DNA of 28,185 nt from Microcoleus sp. Aus8_D1. GTDB taxonomy: Bacteria; Cyanobacteriota; Cyanobacteriia; Cyanobacteriales; Microcoleaceae. The stretch is taken from contig NZ_JAUBUO010000016.1 of NCBI RefSeq assembly GCF_036702645.1, forward strand, positions 1-28,185, written 5' to 3'. Below the pieces are notes generated by a model. That model was not told the origin of the DNA. It saw only the letters and a list, made by a program, of their open reading frames with translations, and ran no database searches. Positions 2,533 to 17,465 of the stretch are shown one piece after another (position 1 is the first letter of the stretch; every line of letters begins with the position of its first letter). The translations under genes were made by a program, and so were the position numbers.

Positions 2533-2615
2533 GCCTTTGTCAACCATCTATGCCTAACAGAATTTTGGGATATTTTTTATATTTGCCAGGTCAAATATTG
2601 AGATAATTTCAGAAT

Positions 2616-2808
2616 TTGTAGGGGCAGGTTCACCAACAATTCATGGCACAAACAAATAATATTGTCAACCCGCCCCACCCAACAGACAATCAAAATGTAC
2701 CAGAAATTTATTGGTAAGATGTTAATCTGAATTTATCGTGTGGTGGGGGCGGGTTTTTGTAAATTATTTGTGGGTTTTAGAGATGGTTGGTGAACCCGCC
2801 CCTACAGG
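2616..2808. repeat. REP/BIME-like nested palindromic element, copy 1 (about 193 bp)
   Basis: Outer arms TGTAGGGGCAGGTTCACC and GGTGAACCCGCCCCTACAGG; inner arms AACCCGCCCCACCC and GGTGGGGGCGGGTT. GTAG head. Preceded by a 55-bp spacer that is itself repeated. Confidence 0.85.
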
Positions 2809-2863
2809 ATTATCGGATATTTTTTTGTATTTGCCAGGTCAAATATTGAGATAATTTCAGAAT

Positions 2864-3056
2864 TTGTAGGGGCGGGTTCACCAACAATTCATGGCAAAAA
2901 TGAATGATGTTGTAAACCCGCCCCACCCAACAGACAATCAAAATGTACCAAAAATTTATTGGGTAAGATGTTGATGTGAATTTATCGTGTGGTGGGGGCG
3001 GGTTTGTGAAATTGTTGGTCTGTTTTGTAGATGGTTGGTGAACCCACCCCTACAGG
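2864..3056. repeat. REP/BIME-like nested palindromic element, copy 2 (tandem with copy 1, includes the 55-bp spacer)
   Basis: Near-identical to copy 1; the preceding spacer gtatttgccaggtcaaatattgagataatttcagaattt (inside the 55-bp inter-copy spacer 2809-2863) is duplicated at 2563-2615. Confidence 0.85.
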
Positions 3057-3091
3057 CTGTATAATTATAATGTTGTATTTTTACAAAAATC

Positions 3092-3652
3092 ATGAAATAC
3101 AATCCTCATATCCATCATCGCCGTTCTATTCGTCTACCAGGATACGACTATAGCCAATCAGGTGCATATTTTGTAACAATTTGTATTTGGCAACGTGAAT
3201 GTTTATTAAGTGAGATTCAAGAGGGGAATGTTTTATTAAGCCGCTACGGTGAAGTCGTTAACTTTAATTGGTTTAATCTCACAAGGGTGTATCCTCATAT
3301 TGAATTAGATTCCTTTGTGATTATGCCAAATCATATTCATGGAATTATTCTCATAAAACAACGGAATAAACGTCAGGGTTTATCGGAAATTGTGAGAGGT
3401 TTAAAAACCTTTTCTTCCCGGCGGATCAATCAAATACGTTCTGTTTCACAAATACCTGTATGGCAAAGGGGTTATTATGAACATATTATTCGCAATGAGG
3501 CAACATTCTCGAAAATTCAGGAATATATTATAAATAATCCGTTTAAGTGGGAAATGGATGAAATGCACCCATCACAAAAGTTTTACTATTCTAATAAAAT
3601 TGATATTAAATTAGATAGTGAAAATGTATTGCCGATGAATTTATCATTATAG
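3092..3652 (+). CDS. REP-associated tyrosine transposase (RAYT, TnpA_REP; IS200/IS605-like Y1 HUH enzyme)
   Basis: N-terminus HRRSIRLPGYDYSQSGAYFVTICI, HUH motif NHIHGIIL and catalytic-Tyr motif WQRGYYEHIIRNE. Flanked on both sides by REP-like palindromes. Confidence 0.85.
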   Translation: MKYNPHIHHRRSIRLPGYDYSQSGAYFVTICIWQRECLLSEIQEGNVLLSRYGEVVNFNWFNLTRVYPHIELDSFVIMPNHIHGIILIKQRNKRQGLSEIVRGLKTFSSRRINQIRSVSQIPVWQRGYYEHIIRNEATFSKIQEYIINNPFKWEMDEMHPSQKFYYSNKIDIKLDSENVLPMNLSL

Positions 3653-3662
3653 TAACCCAAAT

Positions 3663-3853
3663 CTGTAGGGGCGGGTTCACCAATAACTCATGGCAAAAAT
3701 GAATGATATTGTAAACCCGCCCCACCCAACGAACAATTAAAATGTACGATAAATTTATTGGTGATATGTTGATGTGAATTTATCGTGGGGTGGGGGCGGG
3801 TTTGTGAGATTGTTGGTCTGTTTTGTAGATGGTTGGTGAACCCGCCCCTACAG
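3663..3853. repeat. REP/BIME-like nested palindromic element, copy 3
   Basis: Same outer and inner arms as copies 1 and 2. Confidence 0.85.
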
Positions 3854-3896
3854 TATTTGGGATGTTTTTTTGTTTAAAATATAGATGGAATTTTAA

Positions 3897-4090
3897 GGTG
3901 GGTGGGGGCGGGTTCACCCACCATCTATCGGGAAAATGAATGATATTGTAAACCCGCCCCCACCCAACGAACAATTAAAATGTACGATTGATTTATTGGT
4001 AAGATGTTGATGTGAATTTATCGTGGGGTGGGGGCGGGTTTGTGAGATTGTTTGTGGGTTTCAGAGATGTCGGCGAACCCGCCCCTACAG
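3897..4090. repeat. REP/BIME-like nested palindromic element, copy 4 (variant left arm GGTGGGTGGGGGCGGGTTCACCC)
   Basis: Shares the inner arms and the right outer arm CGAACCCGCCCCTACAGG. Confidence 0.8.
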
Positions 4091-4148
4091 GATTTTGGGA
4101 TGTTTGTTTGGAAATTCATTGGTTAAATATTTATGTAATTTAATTGTC

Positions 4149-4339
4149 TGTAGGGGCGGGTTCACCAACAATTTATGGCACAAACAAATAATATTGTAAA
4201 CCCGCCCCCACCCAACAGACAATTAAAATGTACGATGAATTTATTGGTAAGATGTTGATGTAAATTTATCGTGTGGTGGGGGCGGGTTTGTGAGATTGTT
4301 TGTGGGTTTCAGAGATGTCGGCGAACCCGCCCCTACAGG
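4149..4339. repeat. REP/BIME-like nested palindromic element, copy 5
   Basis: CTGTAGGGGCGGGTTCACCAAC ... GGCGAACCCGCCCCTACAGG. Confidence 0.85.
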
Positions 4340-4392
4340 ATTTGGGGATGTTTTTTTTATTTTATTAGTTCAATAATATCAATAATCTGCGG

Positions 4393-12223: not shown

Positions 12224-12341
12224 AATTAGTCCTGGACGCATGGAATTCATAAACTGGTTTTTTTACAAAAATACTTCGTCGCAGCCAGCAGAATCGGTAA
12301 AAAACCCGGTTTCTTTGGTATTTAGGCGTCCAGGACTAATT
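12224..12341. repeat. 16-bp perfect inverted-repeat pair (AATTAGTCCTGGACGC / GCGTCCAGGACTAATT) separated by about 86 bp
   Basis: Arms at 12224-12239 and 12326-12341. The right arm overlaps the stop codon of the STAND gene. Confidence 0.7.
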
Positions 12342-13730
12342 TGGTGATAACCCTTTGATATATTGCTTCAGTACAGGTGGCAAAGTGTAAAGGCTTTCCT
12401 GTTTTTCGATCGAGCAGCGTCGCGAGAGAGATTGCAATGCGTTTAGCAAATTTGATGATGATATTTGTCCGTTTTGTAGCAATTTGGCGACGTTGACTGG
12501 CTGGTTTTCTGTCGCCAACAATGACATGACTTGTTTTTCGAGTTCGGAAGTGCGATCGTACTGCTCATGTAAAACATCTTTTAAATCTTCGGGTAACAAT
12601 ATGGTATCATCTATTAATAACTCATTCGCGCCGATGCCCAACTCTTGAATCAGAGTCGCCACGCTTTTTAACCATAACGGGTTGCCTTGGTAGCGGTGAA
12701 TGAGTGCTTCGCAGTTATCGATTTCTGCTAATCCTTTATCTCTGAGGATTTCCCGTGCGGCCGCAGTGTCTAAACCAGTGAGTTGTAAAGTCCGAATGGG
12801 AGTATTTTCGCTGGTGAGTTGAGGAACTTCTTTCGGCGGTTCCCAACCGATTAGCAGAAAGCAACTTTGATGGGATAATGTCTCTATTTGTTTGAATAAG
12901 GAGCGATATTCTTCGTATTCGGGTTTATACTTTCCTGCCAATTCGCCGCTACAGAAAAGGTTGTGAACGTCATCTAAGACTATTAAACAGCGATGGTTTT
13001 GTAAATATTTAATCAGCGGTAAGCGTTTCTGGTTGTTTGAGGATGAATCTTGTTTTTCTGACTGGGAAAAAAGCTGTATTAGGTTAGATTTAAATTTATC
13101 GATGGTGGGGAATTCGTCTAGGGTGCACCAAACTGCGTATTCAAACTCGTCTTTGATTTGTTTTACGAGTTGTACTGCTAGGGATGTTTTGCCGATGCCG
13201 AGTCGGCCGGTGAGGGTGATAAGGCGGCAGTTTTGTTGTAGAATCCAGGTTGTGAGGGTTTGGAGTTGAGGAGTGCGATCGAAGAAGTCGCCCAACTCCG
13301 GCATTTCGCTTAAATCTTGATGTAAAGTTTTAGTTTGTTTTGGGTTAGATGTTTCGTCATTATCTGGATGTGACGTTGATATATCTGGGGGGTGTCTTCC
13401 TTCTCCACAGGTATTAAAATTACCACTGATGTGTTGTTCTATGACGTTTTGTGTAAAGCTTGAAACATTAGAGACTTGAAACCTTTGAATTGCCGAGCGA
13501 AAATTCTTTTTATTGACATTTTCCCCCAACTCCTCTGAAAGTAATTGCCATAATTCCGAAGCCGCATTCCTAACACGACTTTCAGAACAGTCAAAGTCTT
13601 TGGCTACGTGCTTGTATGTCTCGTGTTGTACAGTTCCTTTCAGTACCGCCTCTTGTAAATCATCAAGGTGTTGACCCGTTTTCTCGAAGACTATGCGATC
13701 GGCGAAGTTTAACATTTCTTTGAGATTCAT
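12336..13730 (-). CDS. Short STAND (NB-ARC-like) NTPase with the cyanobacterial N-terminal HTH-like domain and no C-terminal repeat array
   Basis: Walker A LTGRLGIGKTSLAVQLV; Walker B-like CLIVLDDVHN. The N-terminus (LQEAVLKG...YKHVAKDF..SESRVRNAASELWQLLSEELGENVNKKNFRSAIQRF) matches the conserved N-domain of cyanobacterial NB-ARC/WD40 proteins. Confidence 0.85.
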   Translation of the reverse strand: MNLKEMLNFADRIVFEKTGQHLDDLQEAVLKGTVQHETYKHVAKDFDCSESRVRNAASELWQLLSEELGENVNKKNFRSAIQRFQVSNVSSFTQNVIEQHISGNFNTCGEGRHPPDISTSHPDNDETSNPKQTKTLHQDLSEMPELGDFFDRTPQLQTLTTWILQQNCRLITLTGRLGIGKTSLAVQLVKQIKDEFEYAVWCTLDEFPTIDKFKSNLIQLFSQSEKQDSSSNNQKRLPLIKYLQNHRCLIVLDDVHNLFCSGELAGKYKPEYEEYRSLFKQIETLSHQSCFLLIGWEPPKEVPQLTSENTPIRTLQLTGLDTAAAREILRDKGLAEIDNCEALIHRYQGNPLWLKSVATLIQELGIGANELLIDDTILLPEDLKDVLHEQYDRTSELEKQVMSLLATENQPVNVAKLLQNGQISSSNLLNALQSLSRRCSIEKQESLYTLPPVLKQYIKGLSPN

Positions 13731-13996
13731 CGGATCAAGAGGATGGAAAATTTTGTGTATTATAGCACAGGTAGAGACATTTTAGTATATTTTTAGATAT
13801 TTTAGTACATAACTAGATTTCAAGAGATTGAAGGTAGGAGAAGGTTGTCGGCAATATAGGACATTTTAGGGCTGGACAAACCTTTAATTTCTAAGGAATG
13901 ATGGGAGAATCCTCAATCGATCTCTGGTTATTGACTAAACCTACTGATGTCTGACGACAAGTAAGATCCGCTCTCTAGTATAAATGGAGGTTAACT

Positions 13997-14188
13997 ATGT
14001 CCAGTACCCATAACAACCAAGTGCCGATTTCTACTGTTGGTGATGGTTTTTGGTGGAACTACGATTTGTTTGATAAGCAGTCTCTATCTCCTTCGCTGAG
14101 TTCATCAAATCAGTGTTCATCAAAGCAGAGTTCATTCAGCTTATCTCCTTCACCTCGTCGCAGTGTGGGCGATACTTCTTCTAAGTAA
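13997..14188 (+). CDS. Candidate RiPP precursor peptide (63 aa) with a Ser-rich, one-Cys C-terminal core
   Basis: GGAGG RBS 6 nt upstream of ATG. Aromatic leader-like N-half (GDGFWWNYDLFDKQ) and core SLSPSLSSSNQCSSKQSSFSLSPSPRRSVGDTSSK. 82 bp upstream of ycaO on the same strand. Confidence 0.5.
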   Translation: MSSTHNNQVPISTVGDGFWWNYDLFDKQSLSPSLSSSNQCSSKQSSFSLSPSPRRSVGDTSSK

Positions 14189-14217
14189 GTTTCTAAATAT
14201 GAATGAATAATTAGCTA

Positions 14218-14251
14218 AGCATCTTGGCAGTTCTTAGAGACACAAGATGCT
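14218..14251 (+). promoter_or_regulatory. Intergenic stem-loop (9-bp stem AGCATCTTG/CAAGATGCT, 16-nt loop) between the precursor gene and ycaO; attenuator-like
   Basis: Direct reading; followed by a weak T-tract (tttct). Confidence 0.45.
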
Positions 14252-14269
14252 TTCTATCGGTACGGAAAC

Positions 14270-15586
14270 ATGAATATAGACTTAAACTGGCTTCCTCATC
14301 AAGCTCCTACAATCGACTTTAAGGCAACTCTGCATCCATCAAAAGAAATTGCATCACGTTGGTTTAACTTTCCACCTTACCATGACGAGCCGAAACTTTG
14401 GCATCTCTCTGCTCAAGTCAAACCCAGTATAGACATTAAAGATGAAAACTTACAGGAGGTCGCTGGAGGTTCGTCACTGGACTTTGATAGAGCTCTCGCA
14501 AAACTGGCGGGGGAAACCGTTGAGCGTTATGCGATCTCTAAGAATGTCAATCTGAACTTGAATGATTTACAATCATGGCAGGAATTGGTACAGCAAAATT
14601 TGTGTGCGCTAGATCCGTTCCAACTTGTGATTGGTGATGAACATCGACATAAATCGCGTCGTAACGATAAAATTTCATGGATTCAAGGATTTGATTTAAA
14701 CTTACAAGTTCCTGCACTTATTCCTGCACAGCTAGTCTTTGTTCCGCATATTTTTAGAGATAATGAAGCTGTTTGGAGATCCGCTGTATCAACAGGTGCG
14801 GCAGCACACTCTACACTTGAGGGAGCTTTATATGCTGGTCTTTGTGAAGTCGTAGAGAGAGACGCTTTTCAAATTGCTTGGCTTAGACAGTTAAGATTAA
14901 CTAGGATAAATATAACTACAGGTGATACTTACTTCTACAATTCTATCAATAAACTAATTGATGCTGGTAAAAGATATCATCTTCACTGTGAGCTATATCA
15001 GCTTCCTTGTTCTATTCCCTTATCTGTTTGCATGGCAGTTATTTGGGATAATACAGGTATTGGACCTCGGTGTTCTCTGGGTGCAAAATGTTCTCAATCA
15101 AGCTTAACAGCCTGTGTCGGAGCACTTGAGGAAGCTTACCAAATGCGTTCTTGGTTGCGATATACACTCAACAAGTCGGGAGCATTTTCAAAGAATAAGC
15201 CACTTGATACATTGCTCGATAGAGCGAGACATTGGTTAACACATGAAGCTTCAGAAGTTCTTAAAAGTTGGACTCAACAATTCAACAGTTCTATTTCTTT
15301 ATCTGAAAGACCCTCTGAACTTTCTCTTGGTGAATTAGTTGAGTCAGTTAAACAAGATGGAGGTACTGCATATTTCGTTGACTTAACAGCGAAATTACCT
15401 GAATGTCTGCATCAATTGGGTTGGCATATTACAAAGGTAATCATTCCAGAGTACCAACCGCTAAACTTAACGGAGTCAATGGAAGACTTCGCCTTGCTAA
15501 GAATTGATAATGCTTCTCAGCGTTTGAATGCTGAAGCTCTTATTCCAGCGGGAGAGAAATTTAGATATCCTCATCCTTTTTTGTGA
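14270..15586 (+). CDS. YcaO-domain protein (standalone, 438 aa)
   Basis: AGETVERYAIS (ExxER ATP-binding motif) and STGAAAHSTLEGALYAGLCEVVERDAF (YcaO signature). Confidence 0.9.
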   Translation: MNIDLNWLPHQAPTIDFKATLHPSKEIASRWFNFPPYHDEPKLWHLSAQVKPSIDIKDENLQEVAGGSSLDFDRALAKLAGETVERYAISKNVNLNLNDLQSWQELVQQNLCALDPFQLVIGDEHRHKSRRNDKISWIQGFDLNLQVPALIPAQLVFVPHIFRDNEAVWRSAVSTGAAAHSTLEGALYAGLCEVVERDAFQIAWLRQLRLTRINITTGDTYFYNSINKLIDAGKRYHLHCELYQLPCSIPLSVCMAVIWDNTGIGPRCSLGAKCSQSSLTACVGALEEAYQMRSWLRYTLNKSGAFSKNKPLDTLLDRARHWLTHEASEVLKSWTQQFNSSISLSERPSELSLGELVESVKQDGGTAYFVDLTAKLPECLHQLGWHITKVIIPEYQPLNLTESMEDFALLRIDNASQRLNAEALIPAGEKFRYPHPFL

Positions 15587-15595
15587 GCAATCAAT

Positions 15596-16372
15596 ATGAA
15601 TATTACAGATCGACAAAGCAAAGACAATGATCCATTGGGGCAGGGAATTCAACTAGCTCAGGCATTTGAAGAAGCTACTTGGATTCACGATGCTTCTTCT
15701 CTCCAAGCAAGTTATATTCCCCATTCCTGGACATCGATAAATAGGAAGGAATATCGCCGTTTACCAAGAGTTGATTTGAGCGGACTACGTTCTCCAAGTC
15801 AAAATAGCGAATTAAGCAAGGTATTTGAACATCGGTCATCCAAGCGACAATTTTTACCGGAACCTATTGCGTTAGAAACGCTGAGTACGATGCTAGCAAC
15901 GGTTGCCAGCACTCGAAATGAAGAACCTCCAAGCCGAGTTTATCCTTCTGCTGGTCTAAGGTGGCCAATTGAGTGGTATCTTGCCGCAATCAATGTAGCT
16001 TCACTGGAAGCTGGAGTTTATCATTATGAATCATTTGATCATCAACTGGAAACACTAAAAATAGGCAATCCTTGGAACGAGCTTGCGGAAGCGCTTTCAA
16101 TGCAAACCATTGATCGTCCATCAGCTTTACTAATCTTAACTTCTGTATTTCATAGAAGTTGGATTAAGTATGGCATTCGTGGAAGTCGATATGCTTATCT
16201 AGAAGCTGGTGCAGCAGCCATGTCCTTAAATATTGTTGCAGTAGAGGCTAACATTGGTGTAGTTTGGCTAGGTGGCTTTGTTGACTCCTCTATTTCAAAG
16301 ATTCTTGATATTAATTGGAAAATGGAGTTAGAAACTCCGGTTCTATGTCTCGCGCTTGGACATCCTATTTAG
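15596..16372 (+). CDS. SagB-type dehydrogenase (nitroreductase-fold, TOMM azoline oxidase-like)
   Basis: SSKRQFL, YPSAGLRWPIEWYL (PSAGGLYP-like) and RYAYLEAGAAAMSLNIVAVEANIGVVWLGGF motifs. Starts 9 bp after ycaO. Confidence 0.85.
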   Translation: MNITDRQSKDNDPLGQGIQLAQAFEEATWIHDASSLQASYIPHSWTSINRKEYRRLPRVDLSGLRSPSQNSELSKVFEHRSSKRQFLPEPIALETLSTMLATVASTRNEEPPSRVYPSAGLRWPIEWYLAAINVASLEAGVYHYESFDHQLETLKIGNPWNELAEALSMQTIDRPSALLILTSVFHRSWIKYGIRGSRYAYLEAGAAAMSLNIVAVEANIGVVWLGGFVDSSISKILDINWKMELETPVLCLALGHPI

Positions 16373-16507
16373 AGGATGCCCAAAAAAATGCTAAATATAT
16401 GGTCTCTTGGACTTTATGCTGAAAACGTAAATGAGTGGGGAAGTTTTCGACTCTATGATGAGTTTATTAGTTATATCCTTTCCCTGATTAGCGATTTAAA
16501 TGTGTAG

Positions 16508-16575
16508 TACGATCGCCCCTCACACCAAATACCCAACACTGCGATGATTCTACCAAGAGCGATCGCCCTTTCTAT
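16508..16575. repeat. Roughly 65-bp direct repeat R' (partner at 17482-17550)
   Basis: cccctcacaccaaatacccaacactgcgatgattctaccaagagcgatcgccc versus cccctcacagcaaataccaaacagtacgatgattgtagccagagcgatcgccc. Confidence 0.75.
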
Positions 16576-16943
16576 CAACTCCTGAAAACTTGCACTTTTT
16601 CCTCTATGTCCAATCCCCCTTCGCCTAAAGCATCAGCCGAAGAATGACGAGCGATAAACTCATCTAACAGCTCAAAAAACAGATCGAGTGCTTTGCTTTC
16701 ATCCTCAGAATAAAACAGAATGACGTTAGCCCAAGATTGGCTCGTCTGCACGTTGAATCTTTTTCATATCCACTCAGGAAACTGCCTAAAATCGCTATCT
16801 TGTTTCGTTGGCTGTTCTCCTAACTCATATTTAGCAACGCTGTAACCCGATAAAAAAGCCTGAAGACAAATAATTGAATGTCGTCCCAAGTACATTGAAG
16901 GAGCTTTCTTAATTTTGTCAATCAGCGTATATAAATCGTGCAT
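16575..16943 (-). pseudogene. Conserved-looking hypothetical gene (122 codons) interrupted by an in-frame TGA at codon 60 (16764-16766)
   Basis: Translation MHDLYTLIDKIKKAPSMYLGRHSIICLQAFLSGYSVAKYELGEQPTKQDSDFRQFPEWI-stop-KRFNVQTSQSWANVILFYSEDESKALDLFFELLDEFIARHSSADALGEGGLDIEEKVQVFRS. Both halves look protein-like and are in the same frame. Confidence 0.45.
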
Positions 16944-16985: not shown

Positions 16986-17465
16986 TCAAAATTCCTCTTC
17001 TATAATCTTAAAAGTTCCCATACCCAGTTCCAGAGTAGGTGATGTTAAATTTTGTAGCCATTCCTGCCGAGTCACGCCACTACAATCTATATTATTAAAC
17101 ACAATTTCCTGTTCGTCGATTGTAATTGATATCCCTTGATCGTAGCCATTAGTAGCAATTTGCTGCTGTCGTCGTAAATCATAAATCACTGACCAAGGTA
17201 GGTCTTGCCTTTCTAAATCCAGTTTAATCTGCTTACCATGTAGGTTTCTGATGGTCAAGAACTCTTTGATAGCCTGACTGCATTCAACACATTGAAAGAC
17301 TCCATAGCGACTGGCAATTTTAGCGATATCTTCTCTAATTTCATCTAAACTACTGGGATCTAAACTCAAAGTGTAAAGTTTACCTCCTATATTTATGGAC
17401 AAGTATATCTCAAAATTATTGCCATTGAGTGCTCGACCGATCGCATAGGGTGCGCGCTCTTGCAA
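16986..17465 (-). CDS. Hypothetical protein (159 aa, TTG start); possible toxin-type C-terminal cassette
   Basis: ORF-track ORF. The reading frame stays open upstream through the repeat R, encoding RAIALATIIVLFGICCEGISRSLGKAL before the annotated start. Confidence 0.5.
   Translation of the reverse strand: MQERAPYAIGRALNGNNFEIYLSINIGGKLYTLSLDPSSLDEIREDIAKIASRYGVFQCVECSQAIKEFLTIRNLHGKQIKLDLERQDLPWSVIYDLRRQQQIATNGYDQGISITIDEQEIVFNNIDCSGVTRQEWLQNLTSPTLELGMGTFKIIEEEF

Follow-up and report, generated by a model that had tools for sequence, protein, structure and literature searches.

What does a STAND NTPase without a sensor array do beside the genes for a modified peptide? The question is raised by a contig of Microcoleus sp. 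Aus8_D1 (NZ_JAUBUO010000016.1); the whole stretch analysed, 28,185 nucleotides, is called the window here. In the window, a short STAND gene (12336..13730, minus strand; 464 aa, ATG start), which encodes a helix-turn-helix (HTH) domain followed by an NB-ARC domain, lies divergent to a small locus for a ribosomally synthesized and post-translationally modified peptide (RiPP). The gap between the STAND gene and the 63-aa open reading frame (ORF) of the precursor is exactly 266 bp, as given approximately in the initial annotation of this DNA. That annotation proposed a regulator of the adjacent cluster in the manner of the SARP/LAL proteins or, alternatively, a truncated remnant of a defence NTPase. 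According to the comparative analysis described here, a broader form of the regulator idea has partial support. The divergent arrangement (65 of 66 loci), a repeat array and a cargo-facing promoter speak for it, whereas the protein is neither dedicated to the RiPP genes nor a member of the SARP/LAL proteins.

On balance, we consider it probable that the STAND protein is a nucleotide-dependent, oligomerising HTH transcription factor, located on a portable platform for swapped cargo. In this model, the HTH domain would bind direct repeats phased at 10 bp, which occupy the DNA separating two back-to-back promoters. One, belonging to the STAND gene itself, lacks a -35 element and has its putative -10 box at 13759-13764. 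The other is a predicted sigma70-like promoter at 13873-13902, which would read into the cargo, here the precursor-YcaO-SagB genes. The STAND protein would control both its own gene and the divergent cargo. The regulator and the control region would form the conserved portable platform, and the cargo beyond the cargo promoter would be exchanged between strains. We infer the DNA binding by the HTH domain, the control of the cargo promoter, the sign of regulation, the NTP dependence and the signal.

Sequence and predicted structure of the STAND protein

The 464-aa protein is 100% identical to an NCBI entry named 'NB-ARC domain-containing protein [unclassified Microcoleus]'. It consists of an HTH domain (residues 1-100), a disordered linker (approximately 101-148), a nucleotide-binding domain (NBD, approximately 149-300) and a helical and winged-helix region (approximately 301-461). 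Residues 156-256 match Pfam NB-ARC at 52.9 bits (cut-off 23.5; E 4.1e-14). The Walker A motif runs G175-x2-G178-x-G180-K181-T, Walker B comprises L249..D253-D254, and the ARC motif reads G349-N-P351-L. In an alignment of 79 diverse homologues, each of G175, G178, G180, K181, D253, G349 and P351 is either invariant or shared by at least 90% of the sequences. The NB-ARC-like protein with a Walker A/B core described in the initial annotation is thus confirmed.

The coding region of the HTH domain is located at 13431..13730 (minus strand). The precomputed Pfam match of the 100%-identical protein, and of all relatives, is PF26355 (HTH_VMAP-M9). The putative helix-turn-helix is formed by helices 39-45 and 50-68, and the recognition helix reads 'SESRVRNAASELW'. 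According to the per-region identities, the N-terminal domain and the linker next to it vary more than any other part of the protein.

The AlphaFold2 model calculated with the 79 diverse sequences has a pLDDT of 89.3 and a pTM of 0.72, whereas the model calculated with 38 close homologues instead was unusable (pLDDT 50.8). The N-domain of the model has five helices in residues 3-100 and includes the helix-turn-helix, in agreement with the HTH-like N-domain noted earlier. Residues 91-121 have pLDDT values below 50 and correspond to the disordered linker. An alpha/beta NBD, a helical domain and a winged helix follow, and the winged helix reaches the C-terminus with nothing after it. No Pfam domain is matched in the C-terminal 171 aa, so the WD40/TPR array is missing as had been stated. 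When aligned with a longer STAND protein that has TPRs, the sequence continues for about 26 aa past the stretch matching the NB-ARC module and then stops. The best Foldseek matches are the plant resistosomes (wheat G10, ZAR1, Sr35, RPP1 and Roq1), CED-4 and Apaf-1, with E values from 1e-12 to 1e-9. Searching the solved structures by sequence gave weak P-loop matches to plant CNLs and nothing else. The protein of the window is an intact, minimal NTPase of the NLR-like (NB-ARC) kind without a repeat array; such an array (WD40/TPR/LRR) is usual in the NB-ARC clade, though not required.

Length and distribution of the family

All of the 120 closest homologues (79-91% identical) have 448-486 aa, and more than 120 homologues from Microcoleus have lengths in this range. 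An exhaustive search of 50%-identity cluster representatives gave 2023 clusters at E<=1e-30. Among the best 150 of these 2023 representatives, 104 have 420-510 aa and 13 have more than 1100 aa. The long relatives that were scanned (about 1200 aa) carry WD40 propellers, and a minority of the relatives have the same N-domain and NB-ARC fused to WD40. The family is multi-copy, and several genomes contain two or three copies at different chromosomal sites.

These data bear on the idea of a pseudogene, left by 3' truncation of a longer NB-ARC-WD40/TPR gene. The existence of the long WD40 relatives is consistent with it, and at one related YcaO locus the neighbour is an 894-aa NB-ARC-TPR protein. 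However, the length is conserved in all 120 close homologues, and the short form dominates the cluster representatives. The catalytic and ARC motifs are intact and invariant, the C-terminus is a well-folded winged helix in the AlphaFold2 model, and the ORF list contains no repeat remnants encoded past the stop codon. Because length and motifs are conserved over hundreds of clusters, the truncated remnant of a defence NTPase is rejected. The conservation of length by itself already refutes the pseudogene, to which we assign a negligible probability.

No homologue of the STAND protein was found in phage records. In cyanobacterial plasmids, relatives at 30-35% identity are present as ordinary genes.

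Two putative promoters and a 10-bp repeat array

The control region was compared among 66 distinct loci; where a single locus has to be named, it is given an L number. The -10 box of the STAND gene in the window is TATAAT at 13759..13764 (minus strand). TAYAAT is found at -45..-28 in 61 of the 66 loci, and the -10 of the STAND genes is generally about 34 nt ahead of the ATG. No -35 hexamer was found for the STAND promoter; the repeat array is present in its place. In the window, this operator-like array consists of five direct units with an exact 10-bp period at 13765..13814 and abuts the -10 box. The plus-strand cores are GCACA (13765), AGACA (13775), GTATA (13785), AGATA (13795) and GTACA (13805). 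The same array is reported by Tandem Repeats Finder, and the AT-rich tract mentioned in the initial annotation corresponds to these five units.

Across the loci, four or five direct repeats with a 10-bp period lie directly ahead of the STAND -10. A lag of 10 is the best self-similarity lag in 64 of the 66 upstream regions, where the mean identity is 0.49 against a background of about 0.25, and the control segment has no peak at this lag. For the unit pattern RKAYATTTTW, 2.0 occurrences are expected in the window and 13 are present, four of them in this intergenic region. Extra matches at 2568-4233 were considered as operator units and rejected, as they are part of REP-like repeats unrelated to the array.

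One or two more units are located 55-100 nt beyond the array, and a conserved block follows. On the cargo strand, the block reads GGGC-TAGACA-17/18 nt-AATAAT-AGGAGAAG in nearly all loci. In the window, the distal single unit (GGACATTTTA) is at 13859..13868, 4 nt upstream of the -35 of the putative cargo-facing promoter. This sigma70-like promoter (TGGACA-18 nt-AATGAT, 13873..13902, plus strand) corresponds to TAGACA...AATAAT in loci with unrelated cargo, and it is the only two-hexamer promoter match in 13600-14300. The TATAAA that had been pointed out just upstream of the precursor ribosome-binding site does exist at 13979..13984. It is an unlikely precursor promoter, as it lies 1 nt ahead of GGAGG (13986..13990) in cargo-specific DNA; the conserved site is that at 13873..13902.

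The same platform is found beside a 54%-identical STAND protein (L083) and a 41%-identical one (L092). In recognisable form, it also precedes the gene for a long WD40-type relative in the genetically tractable strain Nostoc sp. PCC 7120 (plasmid alpha; L094, 124768-128337; WP_010999686.1, a 3570-nt gene). This gene is divergent to that of a giant Ig-domain protein, and three GGTCAG/GGTCGG/AGTCGG units are located about 100 nt upstream of it.

Activation is the favoured sign of regulation, by analogy, because the STAND promoter has no -35 and the array replaces it, as in SARP promoters.

A leader segment of 26 nt, TCTCTGGTTATTGACTAAACCTACTG, follows the cargo promoter at 13921..13946 (plus strand). 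It is common to L037, L039 and L041, whose cargo is an unrelated secreted 202-aa protein. In a search of the window and four related loci against Rfam, no leader RNA was matched; the only hit was an unrelated HEARO RNA (RF02033, 161.9 bits) at 5352-5570 of L044, in the variable region upstream of a STAND paralogue. In L019, L048, L044, L029, L063 and many other loci, though not in the window, another conserved leader is located downstream of the cargo promoter, about 200-260 nt upstream of the STAND start. It consists of a hairpin AAGCGTTTAAT-N5-ATTTACGCTT, a T-rich run and GGTATAAAAC, is common to unrelated cargos, and has no Rfam match. This leader could be an attenuator, a small RNA or a recombination site.

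Recognition helix and repeat core

When the loci are grouped by the recognition helix, the repeat cores are sorted by class. The helix SESSVRKVG is accompanied by the core AAATGT(AC/GG/AT/TC/GA), SEARVREVG by four copies of AAATGTTGGG, NESYVR(D/Q)VG by TGTTGG or TGCCAG, and SEGHIKDAA by five copies of AAAGTCGG. In the window, the helix SESRVRNAA is found with the core TAAAAT(A/G)TCT. The units of one array share one core, and the distal unit carries a core of the same class. L082 and L092 both have SEGH(I/V)KD and GTCGG units, yet their identity to each other is only 44%, whereas L082 and the window reach 48%. The PCC 7120 relative has the helix GYIKD and the repeats GGTCGG/AGTCGG.

Two or three analysable copies are present in each of 17 genomes, and within a genome every copy belongs to a class of its own. 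This is as predicted from insulation between paralogous regulators, and locus-of-origin structure contributes too. The loci of any one helix class have many different cargos; in one class, 11 were counted among 17 loci.

Chromosomal sites of the STAND genes

The site of the window has the order peptidase M3, a 291-aa coiled-coil protein, STAND, a variable region and a PAS histidine kinase, and 25 of the loci sampled with one genome per species are syntenic with it. Among these 25 loci, each from a different genome, there are 20 different first cargo genes, and YcaO/SagB was absent from this site in all 24 genomes other than that of the window. At a second conserved site, between the housekeeping genes for FtsH and an M48 peptidase, 17 loci have 14 different first cargos. 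The nearest upstream ORF of at least 100 aa is divergent from the STAND gene in 65 of the 66 distinct loci.

The cargo includes an SF2 helicase, an N6 methylase with an S subunit, HNH proteins, and trypsin-like, subtilase and papain peptidases. Also found are vWA/RTX proteins, a vWA-PP2C-kinase set, GTPases, aminoacyl-tRNA synthetase-like proteins, JmjC with a Suc_Fer-like protein, radical SAM enzymes (once with a GT4 glycosyltransferase) and a WelO5-like oxygenase. Many cargo proteins have no Pfam match.

The presence of about 20 unrelated cargos at the same chromosomal site rules out a dedicated RiPP regulator. The window's STAND protein is no closer to the YcaO-linked STAND proteins of L075 and L083 than to the rest of the family in any region. 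Co-evolution of STAND and cargo was also considered and dropped, as same-cargo pairs show no cargo-specific region in the per-region identities.

Among the clustered neighbours of the STAND loci, no recurrent recombinase was found. An origin as a mobile element was rejected on this result together with the lack of phage matches and the ordinary character of the plasmid genes. No attC-like element was identified, the cassette ends not having been searched exhaustively.

Insertions are also present on the other side of the STAND gene. In L001, L002 and many other syntenic loci, a SocA_Panacea-domain gene (158 aa) and a 144-aa partner lie between the STAND gene and the coiled-coil gene. An alternative insert at the same place is a pair of 108 aa and 137 aa, and the window has neither. 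These inserts indicate that the 3' side of the STAND gene is a variable slot too, for toxin-antitoxin-like pairs.

Junction between platform and cassette

The boundary between platform and cargo can be located using L093, in which a closely related cassette (precursor 95%, YcaO 89% and SagB 94% identical) is located on a class-1 platform with a class-1 array. The window and L093 differ between the start codon of the STAND gene and a point some 20 nt beyond the -10 of the cargo promoter, and they are near-identical from 13921. The junction is in or just before 13921..13946. Thus, the cargo-facing promoter is part of the platform, and the cassette starts in the leader. The YcaO cassette of L083 is on a class-1 platform as well.

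Judged from L093, the cargo-specific cassette proper is approximately 13921..16392. The stretch without blastn homology to the syntenic locus L008 is 13819..16509, which overlaps the conserved control region, and the homology to L008 resumes at about 16510. Because no recombinase is evident, we propose that the cargo is probably exchanged by homologous recombination via the conserved flanks.

The precursor-YcaO-SagB cassette

The cassette comprises three genes on the plus strand. The RiPP precursor gene (13997..14188, 63 aa) has the leader motif PISTVGDxxWW, which is conserved in six related loci. It is followed by a stand-alone YcaO cyclodehydratase of 438 aa (14270..15586; PF02624 1.3e-43, TOMM SagD 4.6e-50) and a SagB-type FMN dehydrogenase of 258 aa (15596..16372; TIGR03605 3.8e-27). 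The YcaO score against TIGR03604 is 170.6, below the cut-off of 219.25. Because the PISTVGDxxWW leader recurs upstream of related YcaO genes, the 63-aa ORF is considered to be a real precursor. The precursor cores in the related loci are ATQQQCQSSCSSGNGGC...RRV; the core in the window is divergent and Ser-rich, with a single Cys. An E1-like (SagC/Ocin-ThiF) partner, a protease and a transporter were not found in the cassette at ~13921-16392.

This YcaO clade is rare: 41 homologues were found, and a metagenome scan with YcaO added a single locus. Co-occurrence of the STAND gene with the YcaO/SagB genes, which the initial annotation had raised as a check, is observed: a divergent STAND gene lies beside the close YcaO cassettes in five of the six distinct loci with readable upstream DNA. 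A short HTH-NB-ARC gene is divergent from the cassette in the window, L075 (Okeania), L083/L084 and L093. At L087, the divergent protein is the 894-aa NB-ARC-TPR protein. The YcaO locus L085, which is ridden with insertion sequences, has no STAND neighbour, and a 42%-identical YcaO lies beside LanM, also with no STAND neighbour.

The 894-aa protein of L087 has a different N-terminus and its own upstream repeats at 3120-3300, with GCTCACTCAGGCTCA twice and an inverted copy. In close relatives, a 328-aa APH/choline-kinase-like gene is located straight after SagB (L088-L090, 2408-3415; L093, approximately 2763-3695), and an APH-like gene is near the cassette in L085 as well. Relative to L093, the APH-like gene is missing from the window at ~16392-16395, and the homology resumes 2 nt later. 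The APH-like protein may be a kinase acting on the Ser-rich peptide.

Alternative explanations

Several results weigh against a regulator of the cargo. The STAND sequence has no cargo-specific signature, and neither a sensor domain nor a signal can be named. The window's two-hexamer site alone is no better than chance (one found, 2.0 expected), and the strict cargo-promoter pattern is present in 41 of the 66 loci. The HTH assignment rests on the Pfam family name and the precomputed matches; in our own Pfam scan, HTH_VMAP-M9 was not among the matches, and the N-terminus gave sub-threshold Sigma70_r4-type HTH matches alone (E 0.01-0.16). The last unit, which abuts the -10, could equally mean auto-repression, and the phased A-tracts could act via DNA curvature without a dedicated protein. 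Because the helix and the repeats are physically adjacent, shared descent of a linked block would explain much of their co-variation; the only case running against overall protein similarity is that of L082, L092 and PCC 7120.

The first of two other explanations is that the protein is a conflict or defence NLR-like sensor (Kaur et al., 2020). The N-domain of VMAP-M type would sense an invader, the neighbours would be effectors activated post-translationally, and the repeats would be ordinary promoter architecture or the sites of another factor. VMAP-M modules have been proposed as diversifying invader sensors, and HTH domains were noted among the effector modules (PMC7159879). Consistent with this proposal, variability within the protein is highest in the N-terminal part, toxin-antitoxin modules are abundant at the loci, and a minority of the relatives have the N-domain and NB-ARC fused to WD40 arrays. 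Defence- or conflict-like cargos are also present (the SF2 helicase, the N6 methylase with S subunit, HNH, the trypsin-like and papain peptidases, the vWA-PP2C-kinase set and the GTPases). However, many other cargos are secreted or biosynthetic, without obvious activation by an NTPase (RTX/PPC, GT4 with radical SAM, JmjC and YcaO/SagB). PADLOC gave weak matches only, to candidate systems; the best, PDC-S27, covers about 90 residues around the P-loop with an E value of 2e-4 and 18 bits. The phage records contain no homologue. The 10-bp arrays that track the helix class, and the class-distinct co-resident copies, would be left unexplained. We consider a sensor acting on effector proteins unlikely, whereas a defence role with a transcriptional output is conceivable. 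The second explanation is that the STAND protein regulates only its own gene or has some unrelated function. The variable neighbours would then reflect frequent recombination at the border of a conserved multi-copy sequence, a hot spot in which STAND and cargo are not coupled by regulation. The turnover of cargo independent of the STAND sequence is in line with this, and the array is on the STAND promoter, not on the cargo promoter. The multi-copy STAND genes, a Tox-PL-2 module and the toxin-antitoxin genes could serve as portable homology; no recombinase recurs, and the flanks of the second site are housekeeping genes. However, the cargo-facing promoter-like block is conserved across unrelated cargos down to 41% protein identity, and a class-specific unit is located right beside the -35 of this promoter. 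A passive hot spot would not impose the orientation seen in 65 of 66 loci. The rare YcaO cassette, moreover, is found beside a STAND gene in five of six informative loci, once with a different STAND architecture. Such an uncoupled hot spot appears quite unlikely to us.

Comparison with known systems

If the STAND protein is a regulator, the AfsR-type large SARPs may be its closest functional analogues, although they are not the same family. In the large SARPs (SARP DNA-binding domain, NOD and TPR), an N-terminal DNA-binding domain is likewise followed by a STAND/NOD ATPase, and these proteins are often located beside secondary-metabolite clusters. In SARP/AfsR promoters, the direct repeats have 11- or 22-bp spacing, the last repeat is 8 bp from the -10, and a poor -35 is overlapped (PMC10936776). 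The replacement of a poor or absent -35 by direct repeats with helical-turn spacing beside the -10 is therefore common to both. The two systems differ in several points. The N-domain here is a small all-helical HTH, assigned to HTH_VMAP-M9 by the precomputed match, and there is no match to Trans_reg_C (OmpR-type) or BTAD at E<=0.01. There is no TPR sensor, and the NTPase is of the NB-ARC type, nearest to plant NLRs and CED-4. Five 10-bp units abut the -10 here, as against two units at 11 bp located 8 bp away in the SARP promoters. The present family is cyanobacterial and multi-copy, with swapped cargo.

MalT is an ATP-dependent oligomerising activator that acts on several repeated boxes upstream of its targets. 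MalT and the LAL proteins have a C-terminal LuxR-type HTH and a helical-repeat sensor, whereas no GerE/LuxR or TPR_MalT match was found here. CED-4 is a STAND protein that can be controlled by a partner protein instead of its own repeats. It resembles the present protein as a repeat-less NB-ARC protein with an N-terminal output domain, and is found at Foldseek ranks 7, 11, 14 and others. In contrast, its output domain is a caspase-recruiting CARD, and it is eukaryotic with 12-15% identity. As the present protein has no sensor domain, a partner protein (the case of CED-4) or a modification may provide the signal.

In the BrxR/CapW regulators, one conserved transcription-factor family is found beside highly diverse defence cargo. 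These are wHTH-WYL proteins without an NTPase, and the cargo here reaches well beyond defence genes. As in an integron, a conserved platform would supply a promoter to promoter-less, often-exchanged cargo. Unlike an integron, the platform usually has one operon-sized cargo and a dedicated regulator, and no integrase or attC-like sites were found, with the limit on the cassette ends mentioned above. The known antiviral STAND proteins such as Avs differ from the present protein, which has no effector or sensor domain. The precursor, YcaO and SagB dehydrogenase of the cargo are those of TOMM/LAP RiPP clusters, whereas the E1-like/Ocin-ThiF partner, the protease and the transporter are missing and the core is Ser-rich with one Cys.

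In a survey of cyanobacterial sigma-factor domains, NB-ARC is listed among the accessory domains joined to sigma70-type domains, with no functional analysis (PMC11119718). An incomplete search of the literature found no paper on the repeats, the promoter platform or the cargo turnover of this family.

Meaning of the proposed platform

If the proposed mechanism is correct, one of the commonest unexplained architectures of filamentous cyanobacteria would have a testable function as a DNA-binding switch. Bacterial NLR-like proteins would be linked to transcriptional output outside the actinomycete SARP/LAL world, and accessory genes would be captured and regulated without an integrase. The pairs of helix class and repeat class would be candidate orthogonal regulator/operator parts for cyanobacterial synthetic biology. 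The STAND regulator could also serve as a lever to activate the silent YcaO/SagB genes and the other cryptic cargos, such as the radical SAM, JmjC and halogenase-like ones. For genome mining, the STAND gene would flag a hypervariable cargo slot, not a RiPP cluster. A more speculative view, which we hold only tentatively and rather doubt, is that the family is a set of mutually orthogonal switches, each reading its own 10-bp code with an HTH that diversifies rapidly. Combined with a bidirectional promoter, they would be recombinase-free docking and expression platforms for inducible cassettes gained by horizontal transfer, among them defence genes, secreted proteins and small biosynthetic clusters like the YcaO RiPP genes of the window. 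Such NLRs would switch on genes instead of killing the cell.

Other features of the window

Downstream of the cassette, a Tox-PL-2 papain-fold toxin gene is located at 16986..17465, next to a gene at 16575-16943 (minus strand). This neighbouring gene has an in-frame stop at codon 60, which gives ORFs of 59 aa and 58 aa. Its counterpart elsewhere is a single 122-aa ORF (for example, L008, 4857-5225), and the split gene in the window may be an inactivated immunity gene. Tox-PL-2 and the 122-aa partner are also found a few kb upstream of STAND paralogues in L027, L036, L039, L057, L063, L054, L055, L038 and L043. These chromosomal sites are unrelated to that of the window, and the pair behaves as another portable module.

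Five REP-like repeats of about 240 bp with GC-rich inverted ends are present at 2573-4357 of the window. They flank a 186-aa ORF (3092..3652, plus strand), whose sequence (HHRRSIRLPGYDY...MPNHIHGII) resembles, by eye, a REP-associated tyrosine transposase (RAYT).

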